A stretch of 64,000 nt of DNA from an uncultured Actinomycetes bacterium (GTDB lineage: Bacteria; Actinomycetota; Actinomycetes; S36-B12; UBA10799). Of this stretch, positions 9,005 to 28,970 are shown in pieces. The notes beneath the pieces are model-generated. The model saw only the letters and a program-made list of their open reading frames with translations, ran no database searches and had not been told where the DNA came from. A program made the position numbers and the translations under genes. The DNA is taken from assembly GCA_963842975.1 (NCBI GenBank), contig CAWJIH010000007.1, forward strand, positions 109 through 64,108. Direction: 5' to 3'. How positions within the stretch are numbered: position 1 is the stretch's first letter; each line of letters starts with the position of its first letter.

Positions 9005-9223
9005 CGTGCAAGTCCTCTCGAGTCGGTTGTGGAAGATCACTCGAAGGATCATGTGACGACCGACATTGCTGTCGACCTTGCGCGCACCGTGGTGGCGGTG
9101 ACGATCGAAGTCCTCTTTGATTCCCTGGAATAGCGTGGAATATGACAATCTTGTGCTCAACCGGGCGAACGCACGTCAGCGCAACGAACGCATTGCACTT
9201 CCTCCACAGAATTGCGAGACACG

Positions 9224-10060
9224 ATGATCACGCTGGGTATTGACCTTGCTACTGAGCCCGCCAGCACAGCTATTGCGCGCATCAACTGGGGCGGTGAAAG
9301 GCCGGTCGTGATCGCGGTGTCACGTGGCGGTGCTCCCCGCGATGGAACCGACGCCAGTCACCTCGACGATGAAGATCTCGTTGAGTTGATCCGTGACACT
9401 GTCGACGCAGGCGGCACCGTGGGCATCGACTGCCCATTCGGCTGGCCTGAGACGTTCCGCACGATGATCACCCATCACGCTGAGGACACCCTGGACGCGG
9501 CAGACGATCATGACAGCCTGTGGCGGCAGAACAATGCCTACCGGCAAACCGATCTCGCCGTCGCCGAGGACGTCGCCGCGCACAAGAACGCCTCCGATGA
9601 CCCGCTCTGGCGCAAGAAGAACCCGCACACGATGAAGGGAAACCTCCCACTGAGTCCGGCCGCGGACCGTCTCAGCCTGACCACGATGAGACTCGCCGCA
9701 CTATTTGCCCGCCTGCGCGAGGTCGGCGTACCGGTGGACCGCTCCGACGTCCACGGGGCCGTCGTCGAGGTCTACCCCGCGGCATCACTGGCCATGTGGG
9801 ACCTGCCGAACAAGGGCTACAAGGGCAAGAAGAACGACAGTGCCGAGGTCCGCAAGTGTCTACTCCAGCAGGTCCTGATTCACATGGACATGGACGCCGA
9901 GTCTCAGGAGCTATGTACCGAAGTCCGACGATGCACTGGATGCCGTAATCGCTTCGCTGTCCGCCCGAGCGGCGCAGCTACACCAGGTGGCCCCAGTCCC
10001 CGACAATTTTCGGGCCCAAGCCCGGCGTGAGGGCTGGATCGCTCTGCCGACCAGTGGACT
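9224..10060 (+). CDS. DUF429 (predicted RNase H-fold nuclease) domain, frameshifted near 9925
   Basis: LGIDLA, GIDCPFGWP and EVYPAASL; the alternate frame gives DDALDAVIASLSARAA...EGWIALP. Confidence 0.75.
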
Positions 10061-10811
10061 TGCGGACTTGCGGATTGCACCAACACCACCCGCTGGCTCA
10101 GATCGCGAGGCGGATGGGTCATCGGCGACGGACTGGCAACTGCCTGACAACGGGCGCGTCACCGATCTGGACCCCTGGCGGCAGGCCACGTTGACGTGCG
10201 CCCGGTGCGGGTGGTCGGGCCCAGGAAGTGCCGCCTCCCAAGAACTATTCCGGCAACTACTCCAAGTGGACTGCCCCGAATGCGACGGCCGACTCCTGCT
10301 CGTCGGATTGCCAAGCGACGAGCAGATACGCCGGGAGGCCGACGCCGGCAACCCCATCGCCCTGGCACGAATGTCCACAGTGAACAGTCGCGAGGAGTTC
10401 TTCGCCAGAGTCGAGCGCGAGAAGTTGCGCGACCCATCGCTGCTACCTGACTTGGCAGGCGACAACTTGGACTTCCTCCTCACCCAGGATGACGACAACA
10501 GACTCGTCCTGCTCCACGACACCAGGGGACGCTCCGTTGGCAGCGGCAGGGGGTCAGACCTTTGGGACGTCAACCCAGAGAAGATCAAAGCCGGCCAGCC
10601 CGGGGTCCTTACCCTCCACACAGAGACCGCCGCGTTCGAAGACCTGGAACCAGTCTGGCGAATCATCTGGCTGCTCCACGCTCGCTACGGGGATCGCTTC
10701 CGCTACCTCGACCCCTGGGAGGCCGCATCTTGGCTCGAAGGCGACGGCGCAGGACTCAGCGCCAGTGATCTTGGTACCCACGCCAAACCCCGCCCTCGAA
10801 CTGAGCGCTGA
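9987..10811 (+). CDS. Zinc-ribbon hypothetical domain, in frame with the DUF429 C-terminus
   Basis: Two CxxC knuckles (TCARCGW, DCPECDG); C-terminal LHARYGDRFRYLDP...WLEGD. Confidence 0.6.
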   Translation: MAPVPDNFRAQARREGWIALPTSGLADLRIAPTPPAGSDREADGSSATDWQLPDNGRVTDLDPWRQATLTCARCGWSGPGSAASQELFRQLLQVDCPECDGRLLLVGLPSDEQIRREADAGNPIALARMSTVNSREEFFARVEREKLRDPSLLPDLAGDNLDFLLTQDDDNRLVLLHDTRGRSVGSGRGSDLWDVNPEKIKAGQPGVLTLHTETAAFEDLEPVWRIIWLLHARYGDRFRYLDPWEAASWLEGDGAGLSASDLGTHAKPRPRTER

Positions 10812-11257
10812 CGCTGGAGTGTCACCCAGGCTGGCACCGGACCAGCCCCCAAGTCTCACCCCCGTCCAAGTGTGCAAGGCCTCGCCGAAGACTTGACCGT
10901 CCCATTTGGCATCTGCGGCTGGCGTGAGCGTCGCGGTGACGTTGACGCCAACGGGCGAGGATCCCGCCGAACGTGCGGTCAGCGGCGCAGACCTGGGCGC
11001 GGACTGTGGTCTGGTGACGAGTGCCGAGATCGTGCTGCGCAACGAGGGTCCGGCCATTGCGAGTAGGCCGATCGGGTGGGCGAGTTGCTCGCCGAGATGG
11101 GCTGGGTCAGGCGACGGTTGCTGACACCTGGCAGCCTGCCGTTGAACGATTCCCGAGCGATATTGGTGGATAAGTCGCGCCCCGGGTAGCGGCGGAGCGG
11201 TGGGAGGAAAGGCACTCCCGCTGGTCAGGGTTGGTTCCCCCGGAGTCGCGAGGCCGG

Positions 11258-11596
11258 CTATGGCGCCAAGAGGAGGTCGAGGTCGTCGTTGACGGTCTGG
11301 ATGGTGTCCGGAAGTTCGGTCCATAGACGACCGTAGGCGATTTCCTCGTCCAATTGGTGTGCCAGTGAGTGACGGATGGTGGTGAGCACGCCCCATACCG
11401 GCAAGGATCGTTCATCCACAAGGCGCAGAGTAAGCAGCCGCGTTGCCGGCTCGGCCAGTCGCAGCCACAGGAACGCGATGGCGAACCGATACAGGTCGTC
11501 GTCGGTGTATCTACGCTGGTCGCCCCGGGTAGCGGCGCTGGCGAGGCGGTCGGTGGCCGCCGCCATCTCAACGAGATAGCGCCTGCGCGTGTTCAC
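11258..11596 (-). CDS. HepT/DUF86-like HEPN ribonuclease toxin (copy A)
   Basis: Rx4H motif IRHSLAH; 112 aa; GTGA overlap with the upstream partner. Confidence 0.75.
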   Translation of the reverse strand: MNTRRRYLVEMAAATDRLASAATRGDQRRYTDDDLYRFAIAFLWLRLAEPATRLLTLRLVDERSLPVWGVLTTIRHSLAHQLDEEIAYGRLWTELPDTIQTVNDDLDLLLAP

Positions 11597-11883
11597 AGCG
11601 GCACGGCTGTCTTGAGGTCGTCCCCGGCCCCCGGGTTTGCGGCGACCTCGTCCGGGAACATGTAGATGATGTGTTCGAAGCGTGAGCCGGCCTTCGCGGT
11701 GAAGGCATAGTTGGCCAGCAGCGCGGCGCCGTCGGTGATGGTGCCGACTAGGCGTCCCGTGTAGCCGACACGCACGTTGACGATCCCGAGCTCGGTGGCC
11801 AGGTCGAGGATCTCCTGGCGGTGGCTCAGGATGTAGTCCTTGTCGGCGTCTGGCATGTCGTCGATGAAGGCGATTTTCCCCAT
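11593..11883 (-). CDS. Degenerate MNT-like antitoxin (copy A)
   Basis: 96 aa with MNT-like layout (I..LA...G..NVRV ... A.PL C-terminus) but no GSx10DxD motif. Confidence 0.65.
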   Translation of the reverse strand: MGKIAFIDDMPDADKDYILSHRQEILDLATELGIVNVRVGYTGRLVGTITDGAALLANYAFTAKAGSRFEHIIYMFPDEVAANPGAGDDLKTAVPL

Positions 11884-11930
11884 GGAGTGAGAATACGTCG
11901 GTTGACGGCCTCCTCGAAAGTTATCCACAG
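11884..11930 (-). promoter_or_regulatory. Leaderless promoter (-10 TATTCT, 6 nt before ATG) with a perfect TTATCCACA DnaA-box-like site at 11921..11929
   Basis: The same architecture precedes the paralogs at 43471 and 44186. Confidence 0.55.
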
Positions 11931-11959
11931 CCGACGTGAGGCCTCGCTCATGCCTCAGC

Positions 11960-12442
11960 TCAGCCGGCGCCCGCGCCCGGGTCCTGGAGGACGCGCCCCA
12001 ACTCCGGGTGCTCCACGGTGGCAATGCCGCGATCGGCCAGCCACGCCAGGATGGCGTCTAACCGGTCACCTGGGAACCGCACGAAGGAGCCGTTCAGCAC
12101 GGTGTCGTCGATTACCGCGAACTCGGCGATGAGGTCGGCGGGCAGTTGAACTCCCATGACGCTCCACGGCGGCGAGGGCAGGTCGCCATCCTCGACGCCG
12201 GGCAGTTCGCGGAAGTTGAAGTCGTCGTCATCCCAGTCCAGCCCGTCTGCGCGTTCCCGGATTTCCTCCTCAAGTTCGGGTGCCACCGCAGCGACCTCAG
12301 ACCACGTCGTGCAGAACTGAACGTCCCACCAAGCGAGGGCCGTCTGGGCGTCGGCCTCGGGTAGCAGGATCACCTGATCCGCTGTCTCGGCCGGGTGCCA
12401 GCCCACGGTTGTGCGGGCCCACCAGAGGGTGTGCTTGGTCAT
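11960..12442 (-). CDS. Acidic hypothetical protein (160 aa)
   Basis: Strong RBS AAAGGAG before ATG 12442; a partial duplicate at 3411..3589 shows mostly synonymous divergence. Confidence 0.75.
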   Translation of the reverse strand: MTKHTLWWARTTVGWHPAETADQVILLPEADAQTALAWWDVQFCTTWSEVAAVAPELEEEIRERADGLDWDDDDFNFRELPGVEDGDLPSPPWSVMGVQLPADLIAEFAVIDDTVLNGSFVRFPGDRLDAILAWLADRGIATVEHPELGRVLQDPGAGAG

Positions 12443-12619
12443 GGTTTCTCCTTTGCAACAAGCAGGGGTGGTGCTCCGACCATAGCCGCACATAGGTCCC
12501 CGATTGCCGAATTGATGCTGGGTGAGGTCGGGCTTGCTCGAAACCCGACAGAAGCTGGGTGATTGACAGCGCAGGATTTGAACACACTTCACGGGCCCAA
12601 GCTCTAGCCGCCCGTAGAC

Positions 12620-14480
12620 TCACCAGGTCCAGTCGCGTGGTAGCTGGCCCAGATAGGTCAATTGTCCGTCCAAGAGTGTGGTCGCATGGCCGTCGCGGTC
12701 CACCCACACGCGGCCTCCCGAGGGACGGATCTTGAGCATCTCCTCTGCCAGGTGCGCCGCAACATGGCCATACTTTTCAGTCAGCGTTGCCACCGTTCGT
12801 GCAGTTCCGTCTGATGCGCCTCCCGGAATCGCCAATGCACGGGACTTGATCGATAGCACGAGAGTCTTGGATCCACGTGGCTCTGGCCACGGCTCCCCGG
12901 GGCGGATCCCCGCCGTTGGGTCAACAACTCGGAGTTGCTGACCCAAGATAGGTTCTGACGGCGTTTCCGAGTGACCAGAGACCGCGGTGTAAGTCTCAGA
13001 AGCGTCAGCAGCGTCTTGTACCGCCCAGGGTTCTTGGCAACGCACCAGGTCATCCGTCATCAGGAAGCGGACGATGTCACCTTCCCCGATGCGGTGGTGG
13101 CTTACCAAATGGTTGAAGAGACTCGACCAGCCGTACCACGTGCCGCCTTCGAGCCCAAGTCGCACATCGAATGCCACTGCATCGCAGCAGGCCACGTTGG
13201 GTCGCTTGTCACCGATTAGCGCGCGCAGTTCCTGATTGACTGTGACCACCCCCGACTTCAGGTAGTTGGTGCCCAAAGTCATGACCAGCTCGGTTCCGTC
13301 GGGCTCTGACGAATAGGCGATACTCGATGGGATCCGCATCGCCCGGGCGGCTCGTCGAAGAACGTCAGCTTCGTCAGGATCGATCTTTGCGCCGACCAAG
13401 TGGACCAGCCCCTGGTCCTTGCGGATGAGCGGCGAGAAACTCAGGTGAGAATTGATGCTGCCCACATTGCGGCCGTCCGCCCGTGCCCGGCGGAGGACTT
13501 CATCCACCGGTAGTACATAGTGCGGGTGATCGGACAAGAGCTCAAGCAGCCACAAGTCATTTCCCACGACAGCGACGTCGGGCGCATTTTCGGCGAGGAC
13601 GTAGCCAACACCTAGAGGTTTGATCACCTCAGCTTCGACTAATGCGGCCAGGACTGTCGCTTGTGGAGGGTGGGCGAAACGGCGCTTTCGCAGCACCCTC
13701 CCAATTCCCCTCGAATATCTCATCCCCAGTGAGGTTTCCGGCGATCTTCAGCTGGACGATGGCGGCATTTTCCACCGTTGTCGCCTTTTGTGTGCTGCAG
13801 AGTAGCCACGGCCCTACAACCGCGACGCGGGGGTAGACCTGCCTTGTCGCGGCCAGGACCTTATCCGCAGGAAGGGTCTGACCCTCAAGGCACACGGCTC
13901 GGACATCGAGAAAGCCAGATTTGTGACGTGTCTGGCGCACCGCACGCTTCACTTCGTCACTGACGATGGCTTGGCGTTCGCCTTCCGCCATACGACGCTC
14001 GAGTTCCAGCGAGAGGCCTTCGCGCCCATAAGCACTCAAGAGCTTCAGGATCCCGTCGGCTGACCACCGGCTTTCTGGGCTTGAAAGCCCGCTATCGATC
14101 AGAAGCTCAGTAACGTCAGCCGGCTCGTCCCAGTCAATGAGCTCAATGGCGTCAATGAGCGCTTCCGGAATAGGGCGTGGGTTCGGGTCACGAAACGACT
14201 CAGCCGCGAGCATCATTTGGCGGACCCGTTCGCGCGTCAGACCCAACGAGTCTCCGATTCTTGCGAGCGTCTCAGGCTCGAATCCCCAACCCCACCGACG
14301 CCTCAAGGGCGCAACCCACCTGGCCGGGTCACGCACTCCGGTGCGGGTTACGAGCTCTAGTGCCATGCGATGGGCGATCTTATCTAGTTCGCCGATCGAA
14401 TCCGGTTCGGAAGCGAGCTCATCAATCTGACCGTCCACATCCTCGCCAGTGAAGAGACGATCCCAGTTGACCACCATCAC
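12620..14480 (-). CDS. Sigma70-region-4-like HTH protein with C-terminal domain X; one frameshift at a G run near 13710
   Basis: ETLARIGDSLGLTRERVRQ helix-turn-helix. ORFs 13629..14480 and 12620..13723 join by removing one G in GAGGGGAATT. Start overlaps the GHKL gene stop. Confidence 0.7.
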
Positions 14481-16657
14481 CGGTCCTCAAGGGCTCCTTG
14501 GGCAACAGCGATGAGTCGCCCCGCCCTTTCGCGTTGTCTGTTTAGGACCCGAGCGGCATCCCAACTGAACTCTGGGCGTCGAAGCACTTCCCTTTCCACC
14601 AGCAAGTTTGCAAGCTCCAATCCGATCACCTCGGCCAGGACTGCCCTGGCAGCTGGGTCGTCCTCGCCCTTGTATCGCTCCTTCTTCTCGTCGTAGGGCC
14701 CGAGAAGACTCTTGAGGGTCTGGTGTCCTCCGTAGACGATGACATTCACACGCCCCTCCAGGTACTCGGCAGTGGCGCGTCGAACCGGGTGCGACTGCCC
14801 GCGCAGCTCAACGGTCAGATCAAGGCCTTGTGCCGGTGCACGCTCAACCACGTCGACTGTGCATGTGGCACGGCGGCCATCGTCAGCGACTGCACTGATC
14901 GTGACTGGCCCCAAGTGCTTGGTTGCCTCGACTCTGATCCGCGCTTCAACGTGACGGCCGTCGGTTGACGGCTGCATCGAATGAGAGGGCTGGGGAATGC
15001 TGACATTCGTGGGCTCAGCATGAACCTGAATCGATAGATCCAGGTCCGAGATTGGAGCGCGCAGGAGCAGGTTGCGGGCTCTTTCCGGGCTGACTGAGTA
15101 GCGCTGGCGTTCAAACCCGAGTTCGGTGACTTCAACCGCACCATGGTCCGAAGCCTCAACAACCACCAGCTCCGCGTATGCAACTGCGTCCCCTGATTGG
15201 GTGCGAAGTTGAGCTTCGCCGAGTTCGGTACCGGCGCTGATTCTGATTGTCGAGCTCATCGCCTCCAGACGTGGGTGGCGCCTCTGCTCACTCCCCGTTT
15301 GGGTGATTTCGAGTAGCCCGGCGGGGTTGCAGCGAACGATCTCAGCTTCAAAGGGGCGAGGAGTCGTCCCTGCGAGTCGGACTGTAAGAGTCCTCTCTTC
15401 ACCAGGGTGGAGGAAGAGTTTCGCCGGGATCACAGCAATCTCCGACACGTGGTCGGTCGAAGGACCAGGTCCGATGGGCTCAGCTTCGTCAATCTCGCGC
15501 AGCATCTCGCGCATCTGCATGCTCAAGGCCTTTTGGGCCGCCGCAAACGCGCGATTTAGGCGTTCGCCGGGCCGTCGGGCTCTGCCGCCGTCACCGGCAA
15601 GCCTGTCCAACACAGGCAGAAGTCTGATTGAGCACTGGCGCTGCAGTTCCTTGAAGAAGGGGTGCTCGCGGACAAGCCCGTCGCGATCGCGGGCAACGAG
15701 TCGTTGCGGGTTCTCTTCGGTTGCTTGGTCGTCATCGAAGGCCCTCACAAGAGCCTCGATTTGGGGTGCCACAACCTCGCCCGCAATCCAGCCTGCTTCA
15801 GGGCGCCCAGTGAACGAGAAGAGGGTGTTCTCGTACGTCGCGTTGCTTCCGGAGATGAGGATGCCGTGCTCGCTGTGATCCGTGAGCGGCTTTGTCACGC
15901 GAACCGGGAGTTTGCGAACGCGCAGCGAGACGTCCCCGTACGCCCCCACGGCGAATGCCGAATCAATTATGAGCTCGCCGCGGTCCTCGCGGGGCTCCAA
16001 CACCATGCGCTGGCCTGACTCCCTGGAGTCTGTCAAGAGCACTTCACGGCGCCGAAGCAGATTGCGCAGCTGCGCGTGGTCGCTGAGGCGTTCCACGAGG
16101 GCGGTCCGGCCAGGCACCTTCGTTGGCTTGGCGACAAAGACGGTCGCGGTTAGTCCAGCCTCGCCCCGGCTGAGTCCAAGGGCCTCCAGGATGCTTTCTT
16201 TTGGCAATGCATCGACAGGCTCGAGCAAGGACCAGTCGCCAACTCGTGTGAGGTCTAACCTATTGTACTTGCCCTCGCGCACTGCCTCAAAGCGGACGTG
16301 TCCCAGTGCAGCGACGTCCTTGGCCCCACGGCCAAAGAGGCCTCGCACCTGCCCGCCCCCCTGGAACTCCTCGTTGGTGCCGCCAAGGACGGCGAAACAA
16401 CTTTTCAAGCCCTCTGCGTCCAGACCCTTGGCCCTGTCGTGGACCTCCACAGCCCAGGGCATTCGCACGGTGTCGATACCGTCGCCCGCTGTTGTGGCAC
16501 GCACCACGATTTCAATCAGGTCTTGGCCGTCACCGTATGCATCGTCGGCATTGGTGATTAGCTCAACCAGGGCGCGCACGATGTCGCCGCGCATTGCAGC
16601 CATGGCGTCCTGTTCAAATGCTCTCTCGCCATACTCAACCCGCCCAGCCATTTTCAT
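14477..16657 (-). CDS. GHKL (MORC/Hsp90-like) ATPase with a long beta-rich C-terminal region
   Basis: Bergerat motifs ALVELITNADDAY, VHDRAKGL and RGLFGRGAKD; RBS GGAGGAG before ATG 16657. Confidence 0.85.
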   Translation of the reverse strand: MKMAGRVEYGERAFEQDAMAAMRGDIVRALVELITNADDAYGDGQDLIEIVVRATTAGDGIDTVRMPWAVEVHDRAKGLDAEGLKSCFAVLGGTNEEFQGGGQVRGLFGRGAKDVAALGHVRFEAVREGKYNRLDLTRVGDWSLLEPVDALPKESILEALGLSRGEAGLTATVFVAKPTKVPGRTALVERLSDHAQLRNLLRRREVLLTDSRESGQRMVLEPREDRGELIIDSAFAVGAYGDVSLRVRKLPVRVTKPLTDHSEHGILISGSNATYENTLFSFTGRPEAGWIAGEVVAPQIEALVRAFDDDQATEENPQRLVARDRDGLVREHPFFKELQRQCSIRLLPVLDRLAGDGGRARRPGERLNRAFAAAQKALSMQMREMLREIDEAEPIGPGPSTDHVSEIAVIPAKLFLHPGEERTLTVRLAGTTPRPFEAEIVRCNPAGLLEITQTGSEQRRHPRLEAMSSTIRISAGTELGEAQLRTQSGDAVAYAELVVVEASDHGAVEVTELGFERQRYSVSPERARNLLLRAPISDLDLSIQVHAEPTNVSIPQPSHSMQPSTDGRHVEARIRVEATKHLGPVTISAVADDGRRATCTVDVVERAPAQGLDLTVELRGQSHPVRRATAEYLEGRVNVIVYGGHQTLKSLLGPYDEKKERYKGEDDPAARAVLAEVIGLELANLLVEREVLRRPEFSWDAARVLNRQRERAGRLIAVAQGALEDR

Positions 16658-17248
16658 GCTGACATCTCCTCCCCGAAAATCACCGATTCTGCCGCTGACG
16701 CGAATGCAGCGAGGCTGTGGTCCTGCAACACTTGCCCTGCCCGGCGCACCTCTGACAGACGGCTGCGCCACGTCTCAGCTGGGCTTCCCGGAGAGCATTG
16801 GAGCGCATCCGCAATCTCGACGCGGGATGTTCGCCGACCTTCCGTCAACTCAGCAAAGGCGAAGCTCCCTTTCAAGTTTCGCCGGAGGGTTTCGTGGACG
16901 GCGGTTGGGGCACCTTGGACAGGCTGGGACCCACCGTATAGTCCCTGTAGCTGGGCAAGGTTGCGTTGACCCAAGCAACACCTTCGGGGGTCAATCGGCG
17001 AGACAAGGCGTGCGGTTTCGCGAGCAGTCCTGCGAGTTCCTTGGCTTCGACTGACTGCAGTGCTTTCGCGGTCTTCTTGTAGTCGGGAATCTCCGGATGC
17101 GTGCGCCAACCAAGTCGGGCTGGCGCATCTCGAAGGCCTTCAAGTAGATCTCTTCCACGTCAACATCCCGATCAGCACCCCCCAAGACATAGAGTGCCCA
17201 AACGAGAGCATCTTGGTTGTTTGCTCGTGAGCTTGCGTCCCTTGTCAT
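16654..17248 (-). CDS. Putative winged-helix protein (~200 aa), two frameshifts
   Basis: ALYVLGGADRDVDVEEIYLKAFEM / PARLGWRTHPEIPDYKK...LTPEGVAWV / HETLRRNLKGSF...EEMSA* lie in three frames; the stop overlaps the GHKL ATG. Confidence 0.55.
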
Positions 17249-17561
17249 ATGACCCCTCGGAAATGCAGTGCCTGTCATTTCGGAAATGCTTACGCGCTCT
17301 GAAAGGAGCGCTGGGCCTTTGATGCCCGGCGAACCTTATTCTAGTTGAGGGTTCCGACTGCCGCGGTCGCCATGAGAGACCGGTTGTTGACGTTCAACCG
17401 GTTGCCAGCAGCTCACCTCGTCAAACCGGATGGCGTTCGCTACTCCAGCTGTTTGAGTGGCATGCCGTTCTTGGCAGACTTGGGAATACGATCAAATCGC
17501 GGATCGAGCCATCGAAGGGGAACTCATGCCAAACGTAGACATTGGGCCATTGCGGATCCTG

Positions 17562-18093
17562 ATCGACGGCTGGCGAGCCAATACCGGACCATGGCCACCA
17601 ACCGGGCAACGGTGTAGTAGAGGGAACCAGCCACAATGCAGTCGCGCTGGCGCCTGGGGGAATAGCTCTCGACATCAGGTGTTTCTGGTACCCGGATGGG
17701 GGTGGAATCGTCGACTGCCCTTCTATCGGCACATCCCCGGCGGCTTTTGAAAGTATCCGGCGTGGCGCTCGAATGGGGGTGGTACGACGGTCGGATGGAG
17801 ATCTGGCTGTCACGCAATTCCGAGCCCTCAAGTTTGATGGTGCTCCTGACGGTGGTCGTCCCAGAATGATCACCGAGGACGATCTCGACGCTCTCGCCGG
17901 CGGTTCGGCGCGGGATCTCCTGATCGGTCTGGGTGCAACTGAATTGGGAGTCAAGTCAGAGGTGCTCGGCGTCAAGGGCAATGACCTTGTCCTCGCTTGG
18001 CCGCTCGAGGCGTCCCCGGTTGTTCCGTTTGTCGCGTATTCACTGACTCGAGTCATGCCGATCGTCCGGGCCCTAGACTTGGCTCACACATGA
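17562..18093 (+). CDS. Hypothetical protein, N-terminus disrupted or frameshifted
   Basis: Frame open from ~17562 to TGA 18093, which overlaps the next ATG (ATGA), indicating translational coupling. Confidence 0.5.
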
Positions 18094-19485
18094 GCGGAGC
18101 CAACCCGTTCAACGCGCACGTGCCCGCGGATGCTTCTCTGGGTCAGCTGAGCGCTTCAATGGATATCTTGATCAAGCTCGTGAGTTGGGAGCTCGGGGAG
18201 CACTACGATCGCGGGCTTTCGGTACTCGACTTCCCGCTAGGACCAGGTTGGCTTGAACGGCTGGGCGGCTGGCGCGGCGAAAGGTTCCGCCTGCATGACC
18301 CTTCATTCGTGTTTGCCGAGCCCGAGTTCCACCCCGACTCTGTGACGTGGCGCGTCCTGCCACCTCGAACTCCGGTTCTTGTTGACCAGTTGACCCGCGC
18401 ACGAAGAACGCGGAACTTCTGGGAACACCAAGCCGTCGACCAGGACCTCAATCGCTATGGCGAGAGCGTGCGTCGTTACCGGCAGCTTGCCGAGAGCCTG
18501 GGGCTTGAGTCGGTCGTTGACGTCTGCGACGAGCTTATTCGCGAGGTGAAGGCGATTCGCTTGCGAGGTGGAGCTCCCGCTCCTTCCTCAACCGGGGTCG
18601 TTGTGCAGTTGCAGGCACAGCTAGAGGACGCCGAGAAGGCTGTTGCAGAGGCACGCCGCGAACTCAACGAAAGGCAGTCGGAACAGGCGCGGCTGCAGGG
18701 CGATCAGGATCACAAACATGCGGAACTCAAGAAGCTGGTCGCAGCCAAGGAAGAGCAGTTGCTGCAGGCTCAGGATGATCTGACGCAAGTACGCGAGCAG
18801 CTGCAACTGATGCGCCAGGAGATCAGGCTGCAAGCGGTCGAAGAGGCCGAGGGTCTTGAGCCCGGCGAACCGTGGCGAGGTGCCCTCGGTTCTCGGGTGA
18901 TCTTCTTGAAGCCCCGGATGCGCGACCTTGTTGATCCGGAACTGGGAGTTTTGTTGTCGGACGAGCTTGGTCCTGTGGCGCGGGACGCGGCTCTTCGTTG
19001 GTTGGAGATTGAACCCGACGGTGGTCAGGTCCACCTCACGGCCGGTGGACACGCTGCCATCCAAAAGGGGCACTCGTTCCTGTACCTGGGTCAGCTGGAT
19101 ACGGCCATCAAATCCGTGGAGGAGGAGACCTCCAAGGCTGACGGTGGTAGCTCCGACGGGAACGGCTCCCTCCCGCGGGGAACGTGCTACGTCGACGCGA
19201 ACCCGGACACCTGGACAAGGCGCGCTGTTGCCGCACCAGCACGAGATCACCGCTGACAGAAAAGACATCTATCAGTACACGACCGAAAGACTACTTTCCG
19301 AGGTGCTCGGTCCCGCGGATGCCGAGTCGATTGCCGAGCAGCTTTGCGGTGACCTGACACCGGGCGAGCTCTTCCGTGTAACCAATGAGGGCGTTGTTTT
19401 GGCGAACAAGGGAGGCCAATACGTGCCACTGAGCCAGGTCGATCTTGACTACTGGTTCCGATGGGGGGAGACGCCGCAGTACTGA
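18090..19485 (+). CDS. Swt1-like HEPN domain, coiled coil, domain X and (after a frameshift near 19230) a second domain X copy
   Basis: Rx4H motif RNFWEH; heptad-rich QLQAQLEDAEKAVAEARRELNE... segment; PGEPW...GG.V....GHA...YLGQL. Frame 18928..19485 supplies LLSEVLGP...PG...VTNEG...GG...LSQVD. Confidence 0.7.
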
Positions 19486-19547
19486 GTGTCCTTGCCAACA
19501 GGTCGCACAGCAGCGCCAGAGGTTCGGCTTCCCCGGGCTTCTGTGAT

Positions 19548-21374
19548 CTAGGCCGGGCGCTTCCAGACTTGGCATGCGATCTTCGCGAGCTGGCCGGATC
19601 GCCTGTCGATTTCCTCCTCGTTCCAGATCTCATTCGCCACGATCTCGGCGTTGAGGGCCAAGACGGACTGCTTGCGCAGGGCCTCTCGCTTCTTGGTCCA
19701 CGCGGCGTTGCTCATTGAGGGGTTGAGGGCCTTCGTCACCAGCGTGAGGTTCCCGATGCGATTGACGTGGCGCTCGCGATTGTCCGTGGCCACGATCTTG
19801 GCTGCAGTGTCGGACCCTGAAACCGGCCACCTCGACTTCCAGGACCGTGGCATCACGTGCTCAATTGTCAGGGAGTCGTAGTCGAAGTGGGCATGCTCGC
19901 TCTTGCTCCGTCCTCGCTGCATATGGGCATCGATGGGGCCGAGAATCATGCGAATGCGCTCCTGGCTGACGCTGCCGTAGTAGCGCCTATCGGTGAACGA
20001 TTCCGCTAAATCCTTGTCAGTCGGCCAGTCCAATCCGTAAGGCTTGTTGAGCAGGCCTTGCACAACAGCCTCGGCCAAGTCGTCTTGTGGGCCAGCTGAT
20101 TTGGCGTGTTTGAGCACCTCCAGGAACGCCCGACCATATCCGCGAGTCTGCCCGCCCGCGATGAGTCGCCTCGTGACGAACGAGTCGATCGCCTCTGCTG
20201 CCCGTACGTGCTGTTCTTGTGGGAGCCGTTCCGGCGCTATGGTCCGCAACCAAGCCAGCAGTGGGACTGCGGTTGTGACACCGAGCTTTTCCATCCGGCG
20301 ATAGACCTCAGCGATGGCCGGAGGCATGTCGTTGGGACGCTCGTAGATCTGTCGGTACTCGCGTGCAAGATCATGGATGCTGGACAGGATCTCGGGCAGC
20401 TTCTCGGTGGTGTCGCGCAGATATACCCGGGCCTCTCCGTAGAGGTGCCCCAGGTTGACTTCGTCGGCCGTTTGGATGGTCAGCCAGGTGGCGAGAAGCT
20501 GGTCTCGCCGACCGCGGGACGCGTGTCCTCGCCCGATGTTCCCGCCCCACCAGTCCTGGTCGAAGGGTGCCCAATATCTGTCGTACAGTTCATCCACCTC
20601 AGCCTCACTGACCTCCGCGCGCATGAACAGGAGGTTCTTCACCAAGTCGGCGGCAGAGAGAGGAGTCTGCCGGCCATTCAGGACCTCGAAGATCAGCTGT
20701 GCATCGTCGAGGTTCTCGAGGTAAACCACGACTAGCTTGATCTTGTGTGCCAGCGCGTCCACGAGTGCGCCAAAGAATTTCTGGGCGTCTGTGCCAGCTG
20801 CGCCTGCGCTGTCGGCCGCGGCCTTGATCCGGTCCGCAAAGTACTGGCGTGCGGCGACATAGCGGTGTTCGGAGGTCGGGGTCGGACTCATGGCAGAAAC
20901 CCACTGTTGCCGGTCACGTCGGCGCGGCCAGAGTTTGTAGACCTCCTCTTCGTCGATGACGTCGTCTTCGTCGAGAAAGACCAGTTTGTGCACTTGCCGG
21001 GCACGGCGCTTCAGAGAATCGTCGATCATCGCATCAAGCAGGCCTCTGAGCAGCAAGTAGATAGTTGTGAGCCTTTGCTGCCCATCGATAACCCATGCTT
21101 CCTGGACGTGTGCACCTCGTGCTTGGAGCACCTGGAGGACGATCGCACCGAGGAAGTGAGGGGCCACCGTGGCGTCATCGTTGGTGGGATCGGCGCCACG
21201 TGCCTCGGCGGTCTCCCGAGCCCTGACCAGCCGGTCGGTCACATCAAGCACGTCGTCCATGAGGAGTTCCCATTGGCCCTCCTCGGTCCATTCGTAGTCA
21301 CGCTGATAGGTGGGGATCAGGTGTCGTCGATCCAGGTTCAGCAACCCACCCAGCGCCACGTCTTCAGCCTTCAT
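19548..21374 (-). CDS. gmrSD: GmrSD-family (DUF262 + DUF1524) modification-dependent type IV restriction endonuclease
   Basis: IPTYQRDYEW, VIDGQQRLTT, IFEVLNGR..PLS, TIEHVMP and NRIGNLTLV...NPSMSN. Confidence 0.92.
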   Translation of the reverse strand: MKAEDVALGGLLNLDRRHLIPTYQRDYEWTEEGQWELLMDDVLDVTDRLVRARETAEARGADPTNDDATVAPHFLGAIVLQVLQARGAHVQEAWVIDGQQRLTTIYLLLRGLLDAMIDDSLKRRARQVHKLVFLDEDDVIDEEEVYKLWPRRRDRQQWVSAMSPTPTSEHRYVAARQYFADRIKAAADSAGAAGTDAQKFFGALVDALAHKIKLVVVYLENLDDAQLIFEVLNGRQTPLSAADLVKNLLFMRAEVSEAEVDELYDRYWAPFDQDWWGGNIGRGHASRGRRDQLLATWLTIQTADEVNLGHLYGEARVYLRDTTEKLPEILSSIHDLAREYRQIYERPNDMPPAIAEVYRRMEKLGVTTAVPLLAWLRTIAPERLPQEQHVRAAEAIDSFVTRRLIAGGQTRGYGRAFLEVLKHAKSAGPQDDLAEAVVQGLLNKPYGLDWPTDKDLAESFTDRRYYGSVSQERIRMILGPIDAHMQRGRSKSEHAHFDYDSLTIEHVMPRSWKSRWPVSGSDTAAKIVATDNRERHVNRIGNLTLVTKALNPSMSNAAWTKKREALRKQSVLALNAEIVANEIWNEEEIDRRSGQLAKIACQVWKRPA

Positions 21375-24300
21375 CAGCCATCACCCAATCCCGTCCCTGC
21401 ACGGCCATCCAGGCGATCAGGTGCACATCGCTCGGTTCTAGATGCTCCAGGGGTTCAGCACCCATGACGGGCTGCAAGCCCGCCGCCTCCACCAGCTCCT
21501 TGACCATGCGTATCTTCTCGCCGGGTTCCACGTCGCTTCGCATCGCGTTGCGAACCTCGCGCAGTACCCGTTCGGGCGGATTGGCGTTGAGGCGGTTGGA
21601 GAGCTCACGCTGCTCGCCTGGGGAGAGCACGAGTGCGCCATGGTCGGCCACTAGGTCAGCAGCGTCCCGCAGCGCCTTTGGCACATCGGGCAGCAACGCT
21701 GCCGGGTCGGTCAACTTCAGCCAGTCGCCCAATGCGGCGCTGCTAGCGATGCCCCATGCCTCGAAGGCCCCCTCGAATGCAGAGTCGGGGAGGTCACGAA
21801 GCGTATCCGGGACGCCCGGATCGGCCGTGATCAGGCAGGTTAAGGTGTCGTCGTCAATGATCGGCCGTTGTGTCGCTGAGGCGTCAGTCCCGGTCTCCGG
21901 GTCAGTATCAAACCAACCCTCGCCAGCCATCTCCTCGGTCGCCGGCCGCCAGGTGCCAGGCTCCACAGGGACGAACCTGAACCAGGGCGTGTCGTGCTCT
22001 CCCATCTTGATGCAGAAGACGTATCCGCTGCGGGCGGCTCGGGGGTTCACAAAGCCACTGCCGGACATCCAGGGCAGCTCCTCGACGGCTTGTGCCGTGA
22101 ACGGATCGGCCAGAGCTTGGGCCAGCCGGCGTCGATATTCCTCACCTGATAGGGCCGCAGAGGCTCCGCCGTTTTCGAAGAGCTGTGGATTCTCAGCGCG
22201 CAGTTGCTCAATTTGCTCGCGAGTGTCTCGCAGGTTGACCTCGAATTTGCTGTGGAAGCCCGGCAGCACCTCGCCGGTGCCGATTGCCGCGTCTGCGTAG
22301 GCCAGCTTGCGTTGCAGCGCCTCCTCGAGCCCCAGAAGTGCATCCAGGTGCTGCGACGGGAAGAAGCAGCCCAGAACGACCGTCGCATGTTTGCTACCGA
22401 TGCGATCGATCCGTCCGTGGCGTTGCACCAGGCGCATCGGGTTCCAGGGCAAGTCGTAGTTGATGATCCGCCCGGCCTGCTGCAGGTTGACGCCTTCGGA
22501 GAGCACGTCGGTGGTGAACAGCAGGTCGAACACGTCCTCGCTCAAGGGGGTGCCGTCCGGCGCCAATTTTCCCGCGGTCTCAGGAGCGAAACCGGCAAGC
22601 ACTCGTGCCCGGTGACCCTGGTCCACACCCGTCTTCTGACCCTTGATGGTGTCGGCTATGCGGTCACGGTAATCCGAGAGCGGATCGTCATCGGGTGCGG
22701 CTGCGACGGCCGCCGATACCCGCTCTGCGACGTCGTCGATGGTGTCCGCATAGGACGAGAAGATCAGTACCTTTCTGCGCGCGGACGAGGAGAGGCCAGT
22801 ACGGTCAGTCGACCGAGCTTCGGTGGCGATGGATCTCAATTCCTCCACCAGTCGCTCAGCTTTTGGGTCCGCGCCAGTGCAGGCGACGTCGGCCAGCTCG
22901 CGCAATTTCTCCAGCAACACCAAATCGGCCTCGACGTCGTCGTAGAGCGCGTCACCGTGGTAGTCCTCGATGTCGGTCACACCCTCGGCTGCGTCGGTGT
23001 CAAGGGAGGCAACCCACTGATCGAGGTCCTCGTCCTCGCTGCCCGTCCAGTCGCGCAGGGCCGTGCCGGTCAGGACGTAGCCCTCATTGACGGCCGCAAG
23101 GAATTGCCGGTGGCCGGCTAGCAGAGTGCCCAAGGTGCGACGCAGCGCCGCGGGGCTGGACTCCAAACGCTTCAGGAGTGCCGATCGCAGCAGCCCGCTG
23201 TTGGAGATCTGGTAGTTGGCGAGCTCGCCGTCAAGCAAGTAGGCGCTCGGCGTGTAGCGCGCCAGCATCAATCGTCCGGGGTCGGCCTGACGATCTGCGT
23301 AGGGTGACACAAGAGGGGCGTGATCTGGAACCTCCAGCGCGTAAACCATGGCGTCCAACAGCGCGGCACCGGCCTCGTCGAGCTCGTAGTCCACGCGCTT
23401 GGCCCGTGGCGTCGGGAAGCGGATAGTTGCTTTCGAACCATCCGGCATTGTGATCTCATCGTTGGGGTAGAACTGTTTGACGAACTTGCGGGTGCGACGC
23501 ACAGCCACCTGGTCCATCAGGTCGAAGAGGTGCTCGGGCGACAGCGAATCCGGCTCCATCGATTGGGCTTCGCGAATGTAGTCGCGGATACTCGGAATCC
23601 CCAAGCCCACAAAAGCCGCGTCGTCTCGCACGAAATACCCGATGAGCGTGTGCAGGTCCATCAGCGAGTTGTTCACGGGGGTTGCGGTGAGCAAGACGAC
23701 CTTCTTTGGGTTCAGTCCCGCCACGAGCCGGTATACCGCCGCTGATCGCTGCGCGTTGGGGTTGCGCAGGTTGTGGGCTTCGTCGATCACCACGAGCGCG
23801 TAGTCGTCGAGCTCCTCAAGGAACTGCTCATGGTCGGGGTTGTCCTCGGCGCTCTTGAGTCGCAACTCGTCGTAGGACATGACATCGACCCGGCGGGAGA
23901 AGTCGAACCGTCGCAGGAACGGCTCCCACATGCTTTCCTTCAACGCAGCTGGGCACACGATAAGCACCTGCTGTCGGTCGATGCTGGCGGCTCTGGCGAT
24001 CACTTCGCCCGCCAGGAACGTTTTGCCCAGCCCAACCTCGTCGGCTACCAGGACGCCACCGAGGGACTCCAGAAGTCGAGTCATCCGGGCCACACCATCG
24101 AGCTGGAATCCCGTGAGGTCCAACACTGTTCGTGGCGATCCTCATCGCCCATGGAATCCGCGTAGAGCTCCTTGAGCATGCGAATGAAGACGATCCATGG
24201 GTCGTGCGGTTCCCACGTGGCCTCGTAGATCGCCGCAAGGTCGTAGGGTTCGGACTGGTTCCACAGTTCGTCGAACCACTCGCGCACGAGCTGGACGTAG

Positions 24301-24884
24301 CCGCCGCTGCCGGCGGGGTAGCCTAGGTTGAGTTCAGCGTTGCTGCTCAGGCCGGCACGGGTGAAGTTGCTGGAGCCTGCCAGCACGGCGGGTAAGGCGT
24401 CGTGGTCGGCGATGTAGGCCTTGCCGTGCAGGAAACCCTCGGTGAAGCGACGGACTTCCACCATTGGGCTGCCATCCCCACTTCTGCTTTCAGCCAGGCA
24501 AGGAAGCGCGCTGTTACTTCCACGTTCTCGCGGCTGAAGCCAAGGAGATCACGTTCCATGGCGAGCCAATGCAGGTGATTCTCAAGGGCGTCGTCAAGTT
24601 TGTCGTCGCGGTCGGCTGAGGACAATTCGATCGCGCGGTCAGTGGCGGGGTCGGGTTCCGCACCCAAGAGAAGCCGCACACGGGGAGTCTCTCCAGCTCG
24701 GCAGCCAGCAGCGAGAAGCCGCCGGGGTTGATGTAGGCCGTTGCGATGGACACGTCGGGCGGGTTGGCGAGCTGCTCGCGCATGCCTTTGAGCATGCGGT
24801 TGATCTCGCCTGCAACCGTCTCACCGCGGTCATGCCGGTTGGTGGCGAAGACCGGGGGAAGGTTGAAAGGTGGTCGTCAGTCAT
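21364..24884 (-). CDS. PLD-nuclease/SNF2-helicase fusion (DrmD-like helicase), four frameshifts in the 5' 800 bp
   Basis: IATAYINPGG; HKD-like LHGKAY...GSSNFT.AGL..N.ELN; ADEVGLGKT, DEAHNLRN, TATPVNN, SEGVNLQ and QRHGRIDRIG. Start overlaps the methylase stop. Confidence 0.85.
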
Positions 24885-27800
24885 CCGTGGTCCCCGAGGT
24901 TGTGGTCCAGTTGTCGAAGTGGGTCAGGGCAGCATCTAGCCGTGGCCGGTAGTCCCAGCCCACGTGGAAGGTTTCGAAGATGTGGGTGAACTGTTCACGG
25001 GTTAGGCCGTAGAGAAGGCCGACGAGGGCATCGAGTTCGGCGATGAGGTCGTCCTTCTCGGCCTGATCCGTCACCGATCCGACCGGTACACCGACTTCGG
25101 CGGCCCATGCCTCGTATCGGTCATCCACCGCAGCAAGGCGGCCGGAGATCTCAACGACGCGCTGCCTAAGGGGATCGTCGCCGCGGGCCGCGGGACAGGG
25201 AAAGCGCTCAAGGAGAGTGAAACTCATTGTGGTCTCCACGAATCGTCGGGCGTACCAGTCAATCGGCAGACTGCGACATGACACCAAGTAGAAAGGCCTC
25301 GTCCTTCGGCCAGCCCTCGCTGCTTGAACAGGTACGGCGCCTTGTGCACCACTGCGACCCCGGGTGGAATCAGAGCGCACAGCAGCGTGCGTGAGTCGGT
25401 GGCCCGTGCCACGTCACGGAAAGCGATTCGTGCGCGCTTCATCGGCAGCGTCTCCGGATCATTGGCCCACTCTCGGCGCATCCCGTAGAAGGCGGAGGAT
25501 GCCAGCCTGATCTGCCGTTGCCGCCTGGCCTGCAGTAGGGCCTCGATTTCGGCTGGGTTGGCATAGGCATAAGGCTGACCGAAGTCTGGGTCCCAGAGGT
25601 TGAAACTTGCCCCAGTCAGTACCGGGAGGGTGTGGTCCTCTGCGGGATGCTGCACGTCGAAGTCGAAGTACGCCTTCTCTTTTGTCGTATCCGTTTCCCG
25701 GTGTGGGCGGAACTTCCACCCGCCTGTTTCGCTCCCGAAGTTCGGATGTGTCCGCATCTGCGCGAAGATCGGTAGGGATTCGGCATCAGGCAGAAGTGGA
25801 AACGCAGCTGTGTCTGTCCAGCTGAGGACCTCCTCTGCGGGAAAGGTAGAGACGGCAGCCGGGTCGGCCATGCCAGCGAGAAACGCCTCGCGGGAGTTGT
25901 AGGGACCCTGTAGTGCCACCGTCCGGGTGCCGGTGCCGCCGCGCCTGTAGGAGAGAGCAGACACCGTGTACTGAGGGTGAATCGATGGGAAAACCCACTG
26001 GCGATTATTGACGACCATCGCCAGATCGACGATGTCGCCATCTCGCATCAGTTCTCGGCGCCATAAGGCACAGGCGGATCCGGCGAATGCTGTGCGCGGG
26101 AGCACGACGCCGATCATTCCGCCGAACCGGATGCCGTTCAGGAAGCGCCATGCGAAAGCCGCCATGAGATCTATGTCACCTGCACCAATCCCAGGGTAGG
26201 GACCCGCCTTGACCAAAGCTGCGGTCGCCTTCGCCTGGGCAAGTTCGCTTTCGTAGGCAGCCCCAAGGTCGGGACGTTCGGCCTCATAGGACGCGATCGC
26301 TTCGTTCTTGTCCTTCTGGCTCATCGACCTAAGACCAGGAAAGCGAACAGCCCACCACGCGTGCGTCTCAACCTTGAGCTTCTCCCAAGGCGGATTCCCG
26401 AGGATGACGTCGAAGCCCGGGTTCTCGCGGAGGAAGACTTCGGGAAATAGGTAGGGGAGGTGCGCCGGATCCGCAGCTGCGACCTCCTTCGCCACCGCTC
26501 GTTCGGTGGCCAATTCTTGGAGGTCTGCGGCCTCGGTGACTGAGCCCGGGTCGATAAGGTTGAGCCGGGTGGCGACCACGGCATCGAACAGAAGCTTGGC
26601 CGGCTCGGCTGTAGCCATTGCCTCACGAATGGCCTCGGCATTGTGACGCGCGTCCGCTTTCGTCGCCTCTGCCGAGTTGGATGCCTCGACCAGAAGCTCC
26701 CGAGCGGCGTTGAGTTCATCCCGGATGGCGTCGCTGTATATCGATAATTGGCCCCCAGTTGCACCTGGATCCAGAACGCCGAGCGCTTCCTCAATGGTGC
26801 CGACCCCGGTGAGGGAGTTGCCCGCGACGAGGTTGTGGTCCAGCGTGCTCATCGGAAGGCCCGGAACGAACGTGGTGATCCAGATGGCCAGGCGAGCGAG
26901 CTCGACAGCCATGGGGTTGATGTCAAGGCCGTAGATGCATCGGCGGGCGATTTGACGGCGCAGCAGTTGCGCGGGGTCAACCTCATCTGCCGCGGAATCG
27001 TCACCGAGCGCGGCTCTGGCCGCCTCGTCAAGAGCCCTCAGCTCGTCAGCGATGGACGGCAGCGGGTGCTCGGTGAGGAAGTCGCGCATGGCGGCTTCGA
27101 GGTGGTCTATGGCGGCGGTGAGGAAATGCGCTGAACCCATGGAGAGGTCGGCGACGCGGAAGTCGAAGAACGCCGCAGACGCCGCCGCCTCGTCGCCATC
27201 GTCCATGAGCGTCTGGATGCGTTCAAGGTGAGCAGTCAAGGCGGGATCGAGTGAGCGCTCCAGCAGGTGCTCAACGATGATGTGCGGCGTGAAGTAGGTT
27301 CCGGTGGCCTTGCGTTCGCCGGACTTGGAGTGGAAGTAGACCCCGCCTGCCGGGATAACAACCTCTTCGCCAGGCTTGGGGGGTGCATAGATCTCCTTGG
27401 TCTTGCCCTTCTCCTTGACAGTTGTGACCGTCAAGTCGCTAGGTGCGAGGGAGAGCGAGGACTCCAGCAGCCCCTCGTAGATGGTGCCGAATTCCCGAAC
27501 CGACAGCGAGCGGAAGTCGACGGGCCCTGCACCGCCTCCTGTGAGGTCATCAACGAGAAGGGCCCTGAGTACGGGTCCCATGACATCGTTGCTGATCCGG
27601 ATGGAGTCCAGCAGGGCTCCCTCGGCGTGAAGGTCGGCATCTGTGCCAAAGAGACCGCCGTTGTAGGCGGGTACGTTCCAGTCCTTGTCGCCGGAGTCGA
27701 TGACCCTCCACACCTGAGCGAGGTCGTCCCAGAGCGAAGTTGAGTCTGCCTCGAATGCCTGGTGTGGGTTGGCAGCCAAGTCTTTCGCGCGGGTCTTGAG

Positions 27801-28970
27801 TGCGTGGCGGTCGTACTGCTCGTTGCGCCCGTAGGGAAGCAACTGGGAGTCTTCCGCGTAGGCCTGAAACAGCAGACGAAACAGGACCTTCAAGCTCAGG
27901 CGGTAGGCGAGGTCAAGTTGGTCCTGGGTCAGCTCGTCGCCTGTATGTGCGGCGAGGGCCTTGGCTACCGCTTCCGACAAGCGAGGCATGATTTCTTCGT
28001 AGACCCGCGCACGTAGTCGCTCGCCCAGGGCGACGGCGTACTGGGACGAGCCGTCGAGAATCTGCTGAGTGCTACCGCCGGGAGCAAGTGCGGCTGCTGA
28101 GAACACAAGCGGCAACAGGGCTGCCTGCTCGGCGTCGATGACGGCAAGGTCAATCTCGAACCAAGTGTCGGCCTGGCCGCGCTGTCCCACCCCGACGCCC
28201 GGTCGGGCGGGGTGCAATCGCAGCCGGGAGCCCCGCATGACGATCAGCCATGGCACTTCCTGCTTGGCTGCGACGTTTAGCCCCCAGGCAACGGGGGAGA
28301 CGCCGAATCGAGGTGCCCGGGCATCGAATTGCTCGTCAGCTTGCAGGAGTACCGCGACTGCCCTGGGGACCTCGTCGGACGACAGCAGCAGGGCCTGACC
28401 GGCCGTGCGTCTGGTGGAGTAGCCGAGCGCCTTGATGAGCGGCTCGTCGCTGAGGCTCAGGAGTTCACCTGCTTGCGTGCGAGCCTGGGCCCAGTCGGCG
28501 CGATTGGGGACTGACATGTCGAGGAAGTGGCGGGCGAAGAGACCCTCGTTCGTGACGCCCGCGTTGCTGGACGATGTCGCTGCCTTGACCAGGGCGGACA
28601 TCCTGTGCCGGGCGGCTAGCCGGTCAGGCTCGTCCAAAGCAGCCTGCAGGACCCGCAGGGCCTGAGCCCGGCTCAACGCGACGGGTGTCATCTCAACTTC
28701 GGGCCCCAGAAGCCACGCCGTGGTGTCGTTGAAGAGTGCAACCACGAGAGGAAAGGCCTTCTTGCCCTTGCGCAAAGAGTGAAGCTTGCGAAGCAGGTCT
28801 CGTGAGGGCTCCCCTTGACCCTTCCACGCGGCAAGGGCAACTTGAAGCCCGACGTTCTGCTGATCGGGGCCAGTGACGATTGAGAGGGGTCTGAGGCTCG
28901 CGGGCGGGGAGGGAACTACCCATGCAATCGGTTTGCTGGCACCCGTCAATCCGTATGTCTCGATGGCCAT
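24877..28970 (-). CDS. Eco57I/type IIG-like N6-adenine DNA methyltransferase, frameshifted near 25270-25310
   Basis: YFTPHII, ADLSMGSAHFL (motif I variant), IYGLDINP and GFDVILGNPPW (motif IV). The C-terminus (DWYARRFVE...ELDALV..LYGL) lies in ORF 24877..25380. Confidence 0.9.

Follow-up and report, generated by a model that had tools for sequence, protein, structure and literature searches.

A divergent Swt1-like HEPN protein with a small partner gene and a recurring domain X, a probable effector of a two-gene cassette in anti-phage islands

In a stretch of 64,000 nucleotides from contig CAWJIH010000007.1 of an uncultured Actinomycetes bacterium, in the following called the window, we analysed two adjacent genes, A and B, together with the modules that flank them. 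Gene B comprises about 465 codons, which are split over two reading frames: the first-frame open reading frame (ORF) encodes 388 amino acids, and a second ORF in the next frame, of which the final 85 codons are conserved, runs to the stop at 19485. The predicted product of B consists of an N-terminal domain resembling the HEPN domains of the Swt1 type, a helical spacer and two copies of a small domain, which we call X. Gene A encodes a small partner protein, and both genes lie between a module with a GHKL-type ATPase and a set of helicase and methylase genes (Table 1). Of 60 related genomes, 59 lack B, which marks it as an accessory gene. We consider it fairly probable that B is the effector of a two-gene A-B cassette in anti-phage islands, where it would serve as a back-up HEPN RNase; this includes the reading that its frame break is an assembly indel.

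Table 1. Features of the A-B locus and its surroundings, in window positions. Loci and proteins from other contigs and genomes are cited by L and P numbers.
Feature	Position	Strand	Evidence or remark
Gene A, small partner protein	17526..18093	+	three-frame translation, DNA, alignment with A of L006, L007, L009, L010 and L012, tblastn
Gene B	18090..19485	+	split over two frames
First-frame ORF of B	18090..19256	+	388 amino acids
N-terminal domain of B (predicted divergent Swt1-like HEPN)	18090..18569	+	residues 1-160; AlphaFold2, PF18731, HmaC head, hhalign
Rx4H motif R108-N-F-W-E-H113	18411..18428	+	codons 108-113; end of third core helix
Helical hairpin/coiled-coil spacer of B	18582..18854	+	residues ~165-255
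Domain X of B, copy 1 (X1)	18855..19112	+	X1 profile, E = 3.6e-31; ~85 amino acids
Linker with frame change	19113..19227	+	poorly conserved, disordered
Domain X of B, copy 2 (X2), with stop codon	19228..19485	+	+1 frame relative to 18090; X2 profile, E = 4.9e-26
C-D-E module	12620..17278	-	tblastn with L002 proteins
C	16654-17278	-	~216 amino acids, no family match; frame breaks near 16968 and 17126
D	14477-16771	-	GHKL-type ATPase, ~740 amino acids, intact; weak HATPase_c and sacsin-like (N-terminal) matches
E	12620-14480	-	Sigma70_r4 helix-turn-helix, C-terminal X here; frame break near 13700
Third X copy, C-terminus of protein E	12635..12910	-	tblastn, 31-34% identity to X1 of B homologues; X1 profile, E = 8.8e-16
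GmrSD, PLD/HKD-SNF2 helicase, Eco57I-type methylase, DndB-like protein	19548-30309	-	PADLOC/family matches

The closest relatives of B, and the only close ones among 5.8 billion clustered proteins, are P0002 (435 amino acids, 5'-truncated, 83% identity to B of the window), P0003 (463 amino acids, 63%) and P0004 (462 amino acids, 48%). All three are uninterrupted across both parts of B. An exhaustive HMMER search of 1.84 billion representative proteins, with the first 165 residues as query, extended the family to 41 proteins (clusters at 50% identity), 15 of them at E ≤ 1e-10. Most members are 330-460 amino acids long and, with one exception, their N-terminal domain begins within the first ~40 residues. 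In the alignment, which holds 38 of the 41 members, W54, D70, R108, N109, H113 and W264 are invariant; P12 is also invariant when only the N-terminal domains are aligned. A pattern search of genome contigs, for which a narrower alignment was used, gave 52 matches, among them no relative.

The original prediction for this gene, made from the sequence alone, had read it as a Swt1-like HEPN RNase with the motif RNFWEH, followed by a coiled coil of heptad repeats and one or two X domains. We found the motif in place. RNFWEH has the conserved Rx4-6H spacing of HEPN domains and the polar residue that usually follows their arginine, and since R108, N109 and H113 are invariant in 38 of 38 family members (R-N-x3-H), it is not a chance match to Rx4H. 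Of the 38 members, four matched the Pfam family PF18731 (HEPN_Swt1) as full-length proteins and six as N-domain fragments (best E = 1.2e-4 among the fragments). PF18731 is the sole Pfam family that recurs among the fragments, every other family being matched by a single member. In P0032 the match extends over residues 25-143 and over profile positions 2-115 of 115, and the full-length protein scores 19.1 bits (E = 0.0016). Moreover, a profile of the N-terminal domain, run over the 60 related genomes, retrieved one other protein, L015 (G010:C1:~22000; E = 2.9e-5), the N-terminus of which scores 113 bits on PF18731 and is followed by DUF499; PADLOC identifies this protein as HmaC at 570 bits. 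When the family profile was aligned with the L015 N-terminus by hhalign, the probability was 92.9% (E = 3.8e-7), and RNFWEH was paired with RNKWAH, LHDPSF with LQDPAL and GWL with DWL. Because the recurrence of PF18731, the retrieval of HmaC and the profile alignment concur, we agree with the Swt1-like HEPN assignment. Judged from these comparisons, the N-terminal domain of B appears to be a divergent sister group to the Swt1-like HEPN domains of bacteria (Ava_2192/HmaC type), with its catalytic motif intact. By Pfam's own cut-off rule, B is not a member of PF18731.

L015 itself is a typical HmaC (HEPN_Swt1 plus DUF499, open frame of 1137 amino acids) and comes from a genome of the same genus as that of the window. 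In the genome of the window, a profile search found no HmaC-type gene and no second protein with the HEPN domain of B, and PF18731 gave no match at E ≤ 10 over the whole genome.

HEPN domains fold into a bundle of four helices, in which an insert frequently separates helices 2 and 3 and the Rx4-6H motif ends helix 3 (PMC3710099). Modelled by AlphaFold2 from its own sequence, the N-terminal domain of the window is all-helical (predicted local distance difference test, pLDDT, 96.2; predicted template modelling score, pTM, 0.91), with helices at residues 17-43, 54-62, 71-80, 85-88, 95-113, 120-136 and 140-158. The model of the homologue P0003, for which the 38-sequence alignment was used (mean pLDDT 88.2), has the same helices apart from the first, which spans 17-44. 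The window model follows the HEPN helix order, with the insert at 63-94 and the motif ending helix 95-113. Structure prediction, which had been named as a check on the HEPN assignment, therefore gave the expected layout, but a Foldseek comparison yielded no significant HEPN structure. A profile search of the N-terminal domain against PDB sequences returned nothing meaningful, and the full-length model found generic helical and coiled-coil matches only when compared with the PDB by Foldseek.

The spacer of P0003 consists of two long helices, 168-203 (36 residues) and 209-250 (42 residues), with pLDDT values of about 87-95, and the AlphaFold monomer model folds them into an intramolecular antiparallel hairpin. 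The spacer matches coiled-coil families only (SMC, Rad50, filament) and qualifies as a coiled coil by its hydrophobic periodicity of 3.4-3.6 residues, which was reached by 88 of 2000 shuffles. While the coiled coil was thus confirmed, the proposal that it drives a ligand-triggered dimerisation found no direct support: the length of the spacer varies between 43 and 137 residues across the family (median 93), the modelled hairpin is intramolecular and no ligand-binding domain was identified. The coiled coil could still act as a dimerisation switch. Family scans and the AlphaFold2 model showed no ATPase domain in B.

Both of the X domains that had been considered are encoded, the second one in the next frame. 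Domain X has a length of ~85 amino acids, and in the P0003 model X1 and X2 share the topology beta-beta-alpha-alpha-beta-beta-beta-alpha. X1 is preceded by the invariant tryptophan of a 'PGxxW' motif. The two copies are homologous, as the hidden Markov model (HMM) of one finds the other at E values of 1e-3 to 8e-6, and X2 of the window is 74% identical to residues 367-459 of P0003. In 27 of the 38 family members X2 follows a disordered linker (residues 350-375 in P0003, pLDDT <50); the remaining 11 lack X2. A search of the whole genome of the window with the HMM found three X copies in total, the third being that of protein E. Further copies are present in two unrelated metagenome contigs. In L016, a 237-amino-acid protein of two X-like repeats ends an operon with an XRE-type helix-turn-helix (HTH) protein and a ResIII/SF2 helicase (6444-9870, minus strand), which is convergent with A-B; in L028, a homologous tandem-X protein of ~240 amino acids follows a similar helicase beside A-B (11671-14806, plus strand). 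The helicase and the X protein of L028 are apparently frameshifted. In the window, the NTPase module with X includes a sigma-like HTH-X protein and a sacsin-like GHKL ATPase; in L016 and L028 it includes a tandem-X protein and an SF2 helicase. Searches of Pfam, PDB sequences and PHROGs found no match to X. The occurrence of X in partner modules as well as in B points to X, rather than to the coiled coil, as the coupling element.

Gene A is present before B in every locus that retains upstream DNA, and the stop of A overlaps the start of B, in the window as ATGA at 18090-18093. The A proteins comprise 184-250 amino acids (~185 in the intact homologues), are mutually homologous and form a family as small as that of B (8 matches). 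They have no match in Pfam, NCBIfam, PADLOC, PHROG or PDB, and no nucleotidyltransferase or minimal nucleotidyltransferase (MNT) fold. In the window, the first ~16 codons of A (MPNVDIGPLRILIDGW, from 17526) are out of frame with the remainder (~17563-18093), owing to a single frame break near 17570-17600.

In gene A of L002/L004 (L004:1911-2393; four Logan contigs carrying P0004) the last ~55 residues could not be aligned with the other A proteins, and tblastn found the conserved A tail of L002 in another frame (228-398); this gene A is probably frameshifted or mis-called. The divergent intergenic region between C and A (17391-17432) contains the palindrome CAACCGGTTG at 17395-17404 and, 28 nucleotides downstream, a degenerate second copy, CAAACCGGATG. 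One of the HTH proteins may use the palindrome as its operator. A repeat scan of this intergenic region gave short repeats only, CAACCGGTTG among them, and a promoter and terminator scan of 17150-19700 performed no better than on shuffles.

Two kinds of modules adjoin the A-B pair. A PLD/HKD-SNF2 helicase and/or an Eco57I-type methylase, often with GmrSD between them, lie beside A-B in the window as well as in L001, L006, L007/8, L012, L018, L025 and L026, and the helicase-methylase pair of the window recurs beside A-B in L007/L008 with 84% and 81% identity. The GmrSD of the window has its best PADLOC matches to Orf5 (E = 1e-89) and HEC-06 (E = 1e-55), the methylase comprises 1270 amino acids and the SNF2 N-terminus is frameshifted. 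GmrSD-like genes are known as cargo of Hma systems (10.1101/2024.01.29.577857). An HKD-helicase and an N6-methylase form the core of 'Type-2 BREX-related' systems, which also have a DUF499 ATPase (10.1101/2025.10.09.681413). In none of the A-B loci did we see a DUF499 gene.

The other module, C-D-E, adjoins A-B in four gene orders, which come from unrelated metagenomes: the two are divergent in the window, arranged as A-B-C-D-E in L002, convergent in L020 and arranged as C-D-E-A-B in L023/24. Because this linkage survives rearrangement at 34-60% identity of B, it argues for a functional tie between A-B and C-D-E. No PADLOC model fits C-D-E, which is a candidate for an undescribed defence module in its own right.

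The frame change in B is single and falls into the linker between the X copies. The first frame continues to a stop at 19254-19256, and the conserved sequence picks up again in the next frame at 19228. High-scoring segment pairs (HSPs) from tblastn with B homologues switch frame at ~19133-19193; in DNA alignments with L001, L006 and L002 the break lies inside the linker, which is too divergent for an exact placing; and a frame tracker based on codon usage places it at 19212. The advice in the original prediction to resequence 19200-19260 was therefore to the point. We rejected programmed frameshifting, since the homologues are uninterrupted, the break lies in a non-conserved linker and there is no recognisable slippery motif.

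Further breaks were found around B, within 7340-25310, in genes that are otherwise well conserved. Comparison with intact homologues by tblastn revealed a single break in each of A, B and E, two breaks in C and three in the PLD part of SNF2, while D and GmrSD are intact. The positions are ~17580 in A, ~19200 in B, ~16968 and ~17126 in C, ~13700 in E, and ~24130, ~24480 and ~24680 in SNF2; others lie at ~9909 and ~25293. Internal in-frame stops were absent from ~4000 aligned codons (A, B, C, E, SNF2 and other HSPs), the sole stop, in a GmrSD HSP, being the terminal stop of that gene. The frame tracker, which was trained on the long ORFs of the genome and counts same-strand frame switches that are not bounded by a stop, reported 334 candidate breaks over all 18 contigs, or ~11 per 100 kb, a count that misses breaks leaving short fragments and certainly includes some false positives. 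It recovers seven breaks between 9.9 and 25.3 kb, five of which are confirmed by tblastn (13695, 19212, 24126, 24462 and 24690).

From these observations we propose the following mode of action. B is predicted to be a metal-independent endoRNase, which A, most probably, would keep inactive as long as the cell is uninfected; alternatively, A may sense the trigger. Upon infection, or upon failure of the neighbouring DNA-targeting system, B would be recruited or oligomerised via X-X contacts with a partner module, X docking it either onto a second B or onto a protein of an NTPase module that also bears X. Two HEPN domains would then pair and form a composite active site, pairing for activity being described in the literature as a general property of HEPN RNases. 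The cutting of cellular and/or phage RNA would result in growth arrest or abortive infection. A role as back-up suicide RNases has been suggested for the HEPN heads of DUF499 ATPases and for HEPN genes that stand alone near BREX-related systems (PMC3710099; 10.1101/2025.10.09.681413), and A-B may supply such a back-up RNase to helicase-methylase systems without a DUF499 ATPase.

Several findings weigh against this interpretation. None of the family members attains the gathering score of PF18731 (27.5 bits), and the B sequence of the window itself has no Pfam match. Foldseek comparison of either model with PDB and BFVD gave nothing at E <0.2, and for the N-domain model nothing at E <1; the best HEPN structure, 7bxo_F, had a probability of 0.21 and template modelling (TM) scores of 0.26-0.30. 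In most loci A-B is convergent with the SNF2 and methylase genes and not co-transcribed with them, so that the neighbourhood could be mere clustering in defence islands. X is missing from the E proteins of L020 and L023; the adaptor idea hence does not cover all loci. The RNase activity of B, its toxicity, its neutralisation by A and the X-X binding are all predicted. Finally, the frame breaks are ~8-fold denser between 9.9 and 25.3 kb than on average in the genome, they are not enriched at homopolymers, for which we tested, and a real decay of the island is possible.

The last points lead to the most serious alternative, namely that the window copy is a true pseudogene in a decaying defence island, the frameshifts in A, B, C, E and PLD-SNF2 being real and nothing functional here. 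At least 12 breaks within 9.9-25.3 kb, compared with ~11 per 100 kb genome-wide, speak for it, as do the intact genes for RpoB, two DnaE proteins and GyrA (contig C11). On the other hand, damage by indels only, with no internal nonsense codon and with high identity to intact homologues (94.6% for SNF2), is unlike neutral decay. No contig is free of candidate breaks, and a topoisomerase gene of the housekeeping type is affected too: the GyrA/ParC-like gene (PF00521) at C7:110676-111996, outside the window, is split in two frames at ~111490. Accessory islands in long-read metagenome assemblies typically have a lower coverage, and consensus errors, which would be worse in such an island, could have produced the pattern. 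Moreover, the break in B affects a disordered linker, and a product truncated there (HEPN-hairpin-X1) would have the architecture of the 11 natural members without X2. Because of the indel-only damage and the genome-wide background of breaks, we lean slightly towards an assembly indel in B, and rate the pseudogene as a substantial possibility, though short of an even chance.

A-B might also be a self-contained type II toxin-antitoxin pair, with C-D-E, SNF2/methylase and GmrSD as unrelated cargo and with X binding A or a cellular target. The small upstream gene, the 4-nucleotide overlap, the HEPN toxin downstream and the sporadic distribution would fit, and in L010 (beside an IS481 transposase), L022 and L029 neither module is in view. 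Such a pair can hardly explain why C-D-E accompanies A-B pairs with B identities of 34-60% in four orders without selection for linkage, nor why three loci have X in proteins of adjacent NTPase operons; A, in addition, has neither the MNT nor any other known antitoxin fold. We therefore regard a plain toxin-antitoxin pair as rather unlikely.

A role of B as effector would be lost if the N-terminal domain were a HEPN-like bundle that binds RNA or nucleotides without cleavage, as proposed for the HEPN domain of eukaryotic Swt1, and B were a sensor or scaffold. The HEPN superfamily does include inactive members that only bind (PMC3710099), and the loci already possess nucleases in PLD-SNF2 and GmrSD. 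Inactive HEPN domains, however, lose the motif, while in B the arginine, asparagine and histidine, as well as D70 and W54, are invariant in 38 of 38 members, which makes a purely binding role improbable. That the domain is an unrelated helical one with RNxxxH by convergence, as the lack of a significant Foldseek match, of a Pfam match above cut-off and of a profile match in the PDB might suggest, is very improbable in view of the recurrent full-length PF18731 matches and of a profile-profile alignment with a genuine PF18731 domain that pairs four separate conserved positions.

Returning to B as the effector of the A-B cassette, we tentatively add a broader and more doubtful suggestion. X may be an undescribed adaptor that plugs a Swt1-type HEPN RNase (B, checked by A) into interchangeable NTPase sensor modules. 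A-B and an X-bearing partner would then constitute a new multi-gene abortive-infection system, giving helicase-methylase systems without the DUF499/HmaC ATPase the back-up RNase that HmaC bears as its head.

Many bacterial immune systems, among them Cas13, Csm6, HEPN-MNT, ApeA and HmaC, use HEPN RNases as their executioners. In the B family, an HmaC-type HEPN head occurs as a separate protein with its own partner gene and with a small domain that is shared with ATPase and helicase neighbours. If X is a docking domain, the family would provide a concrete example, open to test, of how different sensors are connected to a suicide RNase, and of how restriction-like systems gain a second line of defence at the RNA level. 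A and X are the two undescribed elements here, whereas a HEPN abortive-infection effector is of a known kind. The original prediction did not take in the partner gene A, the helicase and methylase neighbourhood or the occurrence of X in partner modules. Current defence annotators will miss the family, since none of Pfam, PADLOC, NCBIfam and PHROGs includes it. Annotation pipelines will moreover call B of the window a pseudogene, true or not, given its two frames.

A literature search found no paper that names the architecture of B, and B itself is unmatched in Pfam, NCBIfam, PADLOC and PHROGs. Among the described systems, the HEPN-MNT pairs (Shewanella SO_3166/SO_3165) resemble A-B in being coupled two-gene cassettes with a HEPN RNase toxin that carries Rx4H, and according to the literature they are active through HEPN dimers. 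Their partner is a minimal nucleotidyltransferase, whereas A is not one and belongs to no known family; B, for its part, is 3-4 times larger and has extra domains, and its best structural match to this group, 7bxo_F, is not significant. On this comparison, A-B is not a HEPN-MNT pair. Stand-alone HEPN defence proteins of the HEC-08, ApeA and AbiV types, which lie within or next to systems like restriction-modification, share with B the position of a HEPN RNase gene beside a DNA-targeting defence system, and mutation of the motif histidine of HEC-08 abolishes defence (10.1101/2024.01.29.577857). They belong to other HEPN families (DUF3644, ApeA, AbiV) with other accessory domains, none has A or X, and no PADLOC model recognises B.

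Kaur, Burroughs, Iyer and Aravind reportedly described effector-associated adaptor domains of NTPase-centred conflict systems in 2020. As in those systems, the same small domain is found on the effector and on a component of the NTPase module, which suggests homotypic recruitment, although we take this likeness as a lead only: X matches no described adaptor family, and its partners are of the GHKL ATPase or SF2 helicase type instead of STAND NTPases.

The helicase and methylase set of the window resembles Type-2 BREX-related and Hma-like systems but differs in that the window has no DUF499 ATPase. In the Hma system, one operon encodes a DUF1156 methylase together with a helicase-nuclease, whereas the neighbours of B are an Eco57I-type methylase and a helicase with N-terminal PLD/HKD. 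The nearest detectable relative of the N-terminal domain of B is the HEPN head of HmaC/DUF499 proteins (Hma, Type-1 BREX-related; the 'Ava_2192' family of Anantharaman et al. 2013), with which the RN[FK]W[EA]H, LxDP and xWL positions align. This head is fused to a DUF499 AAA+ ATPase, while B carries a helical hairpin and X domains instead and, unlike HmaC, has a dedicated partner gene, A. B has no DUF499 and is not HmaC. Nevertheless, both occur in a restriction-modification-like context of helicase and methylase, and both are proposed to be back-up suicide RNases.

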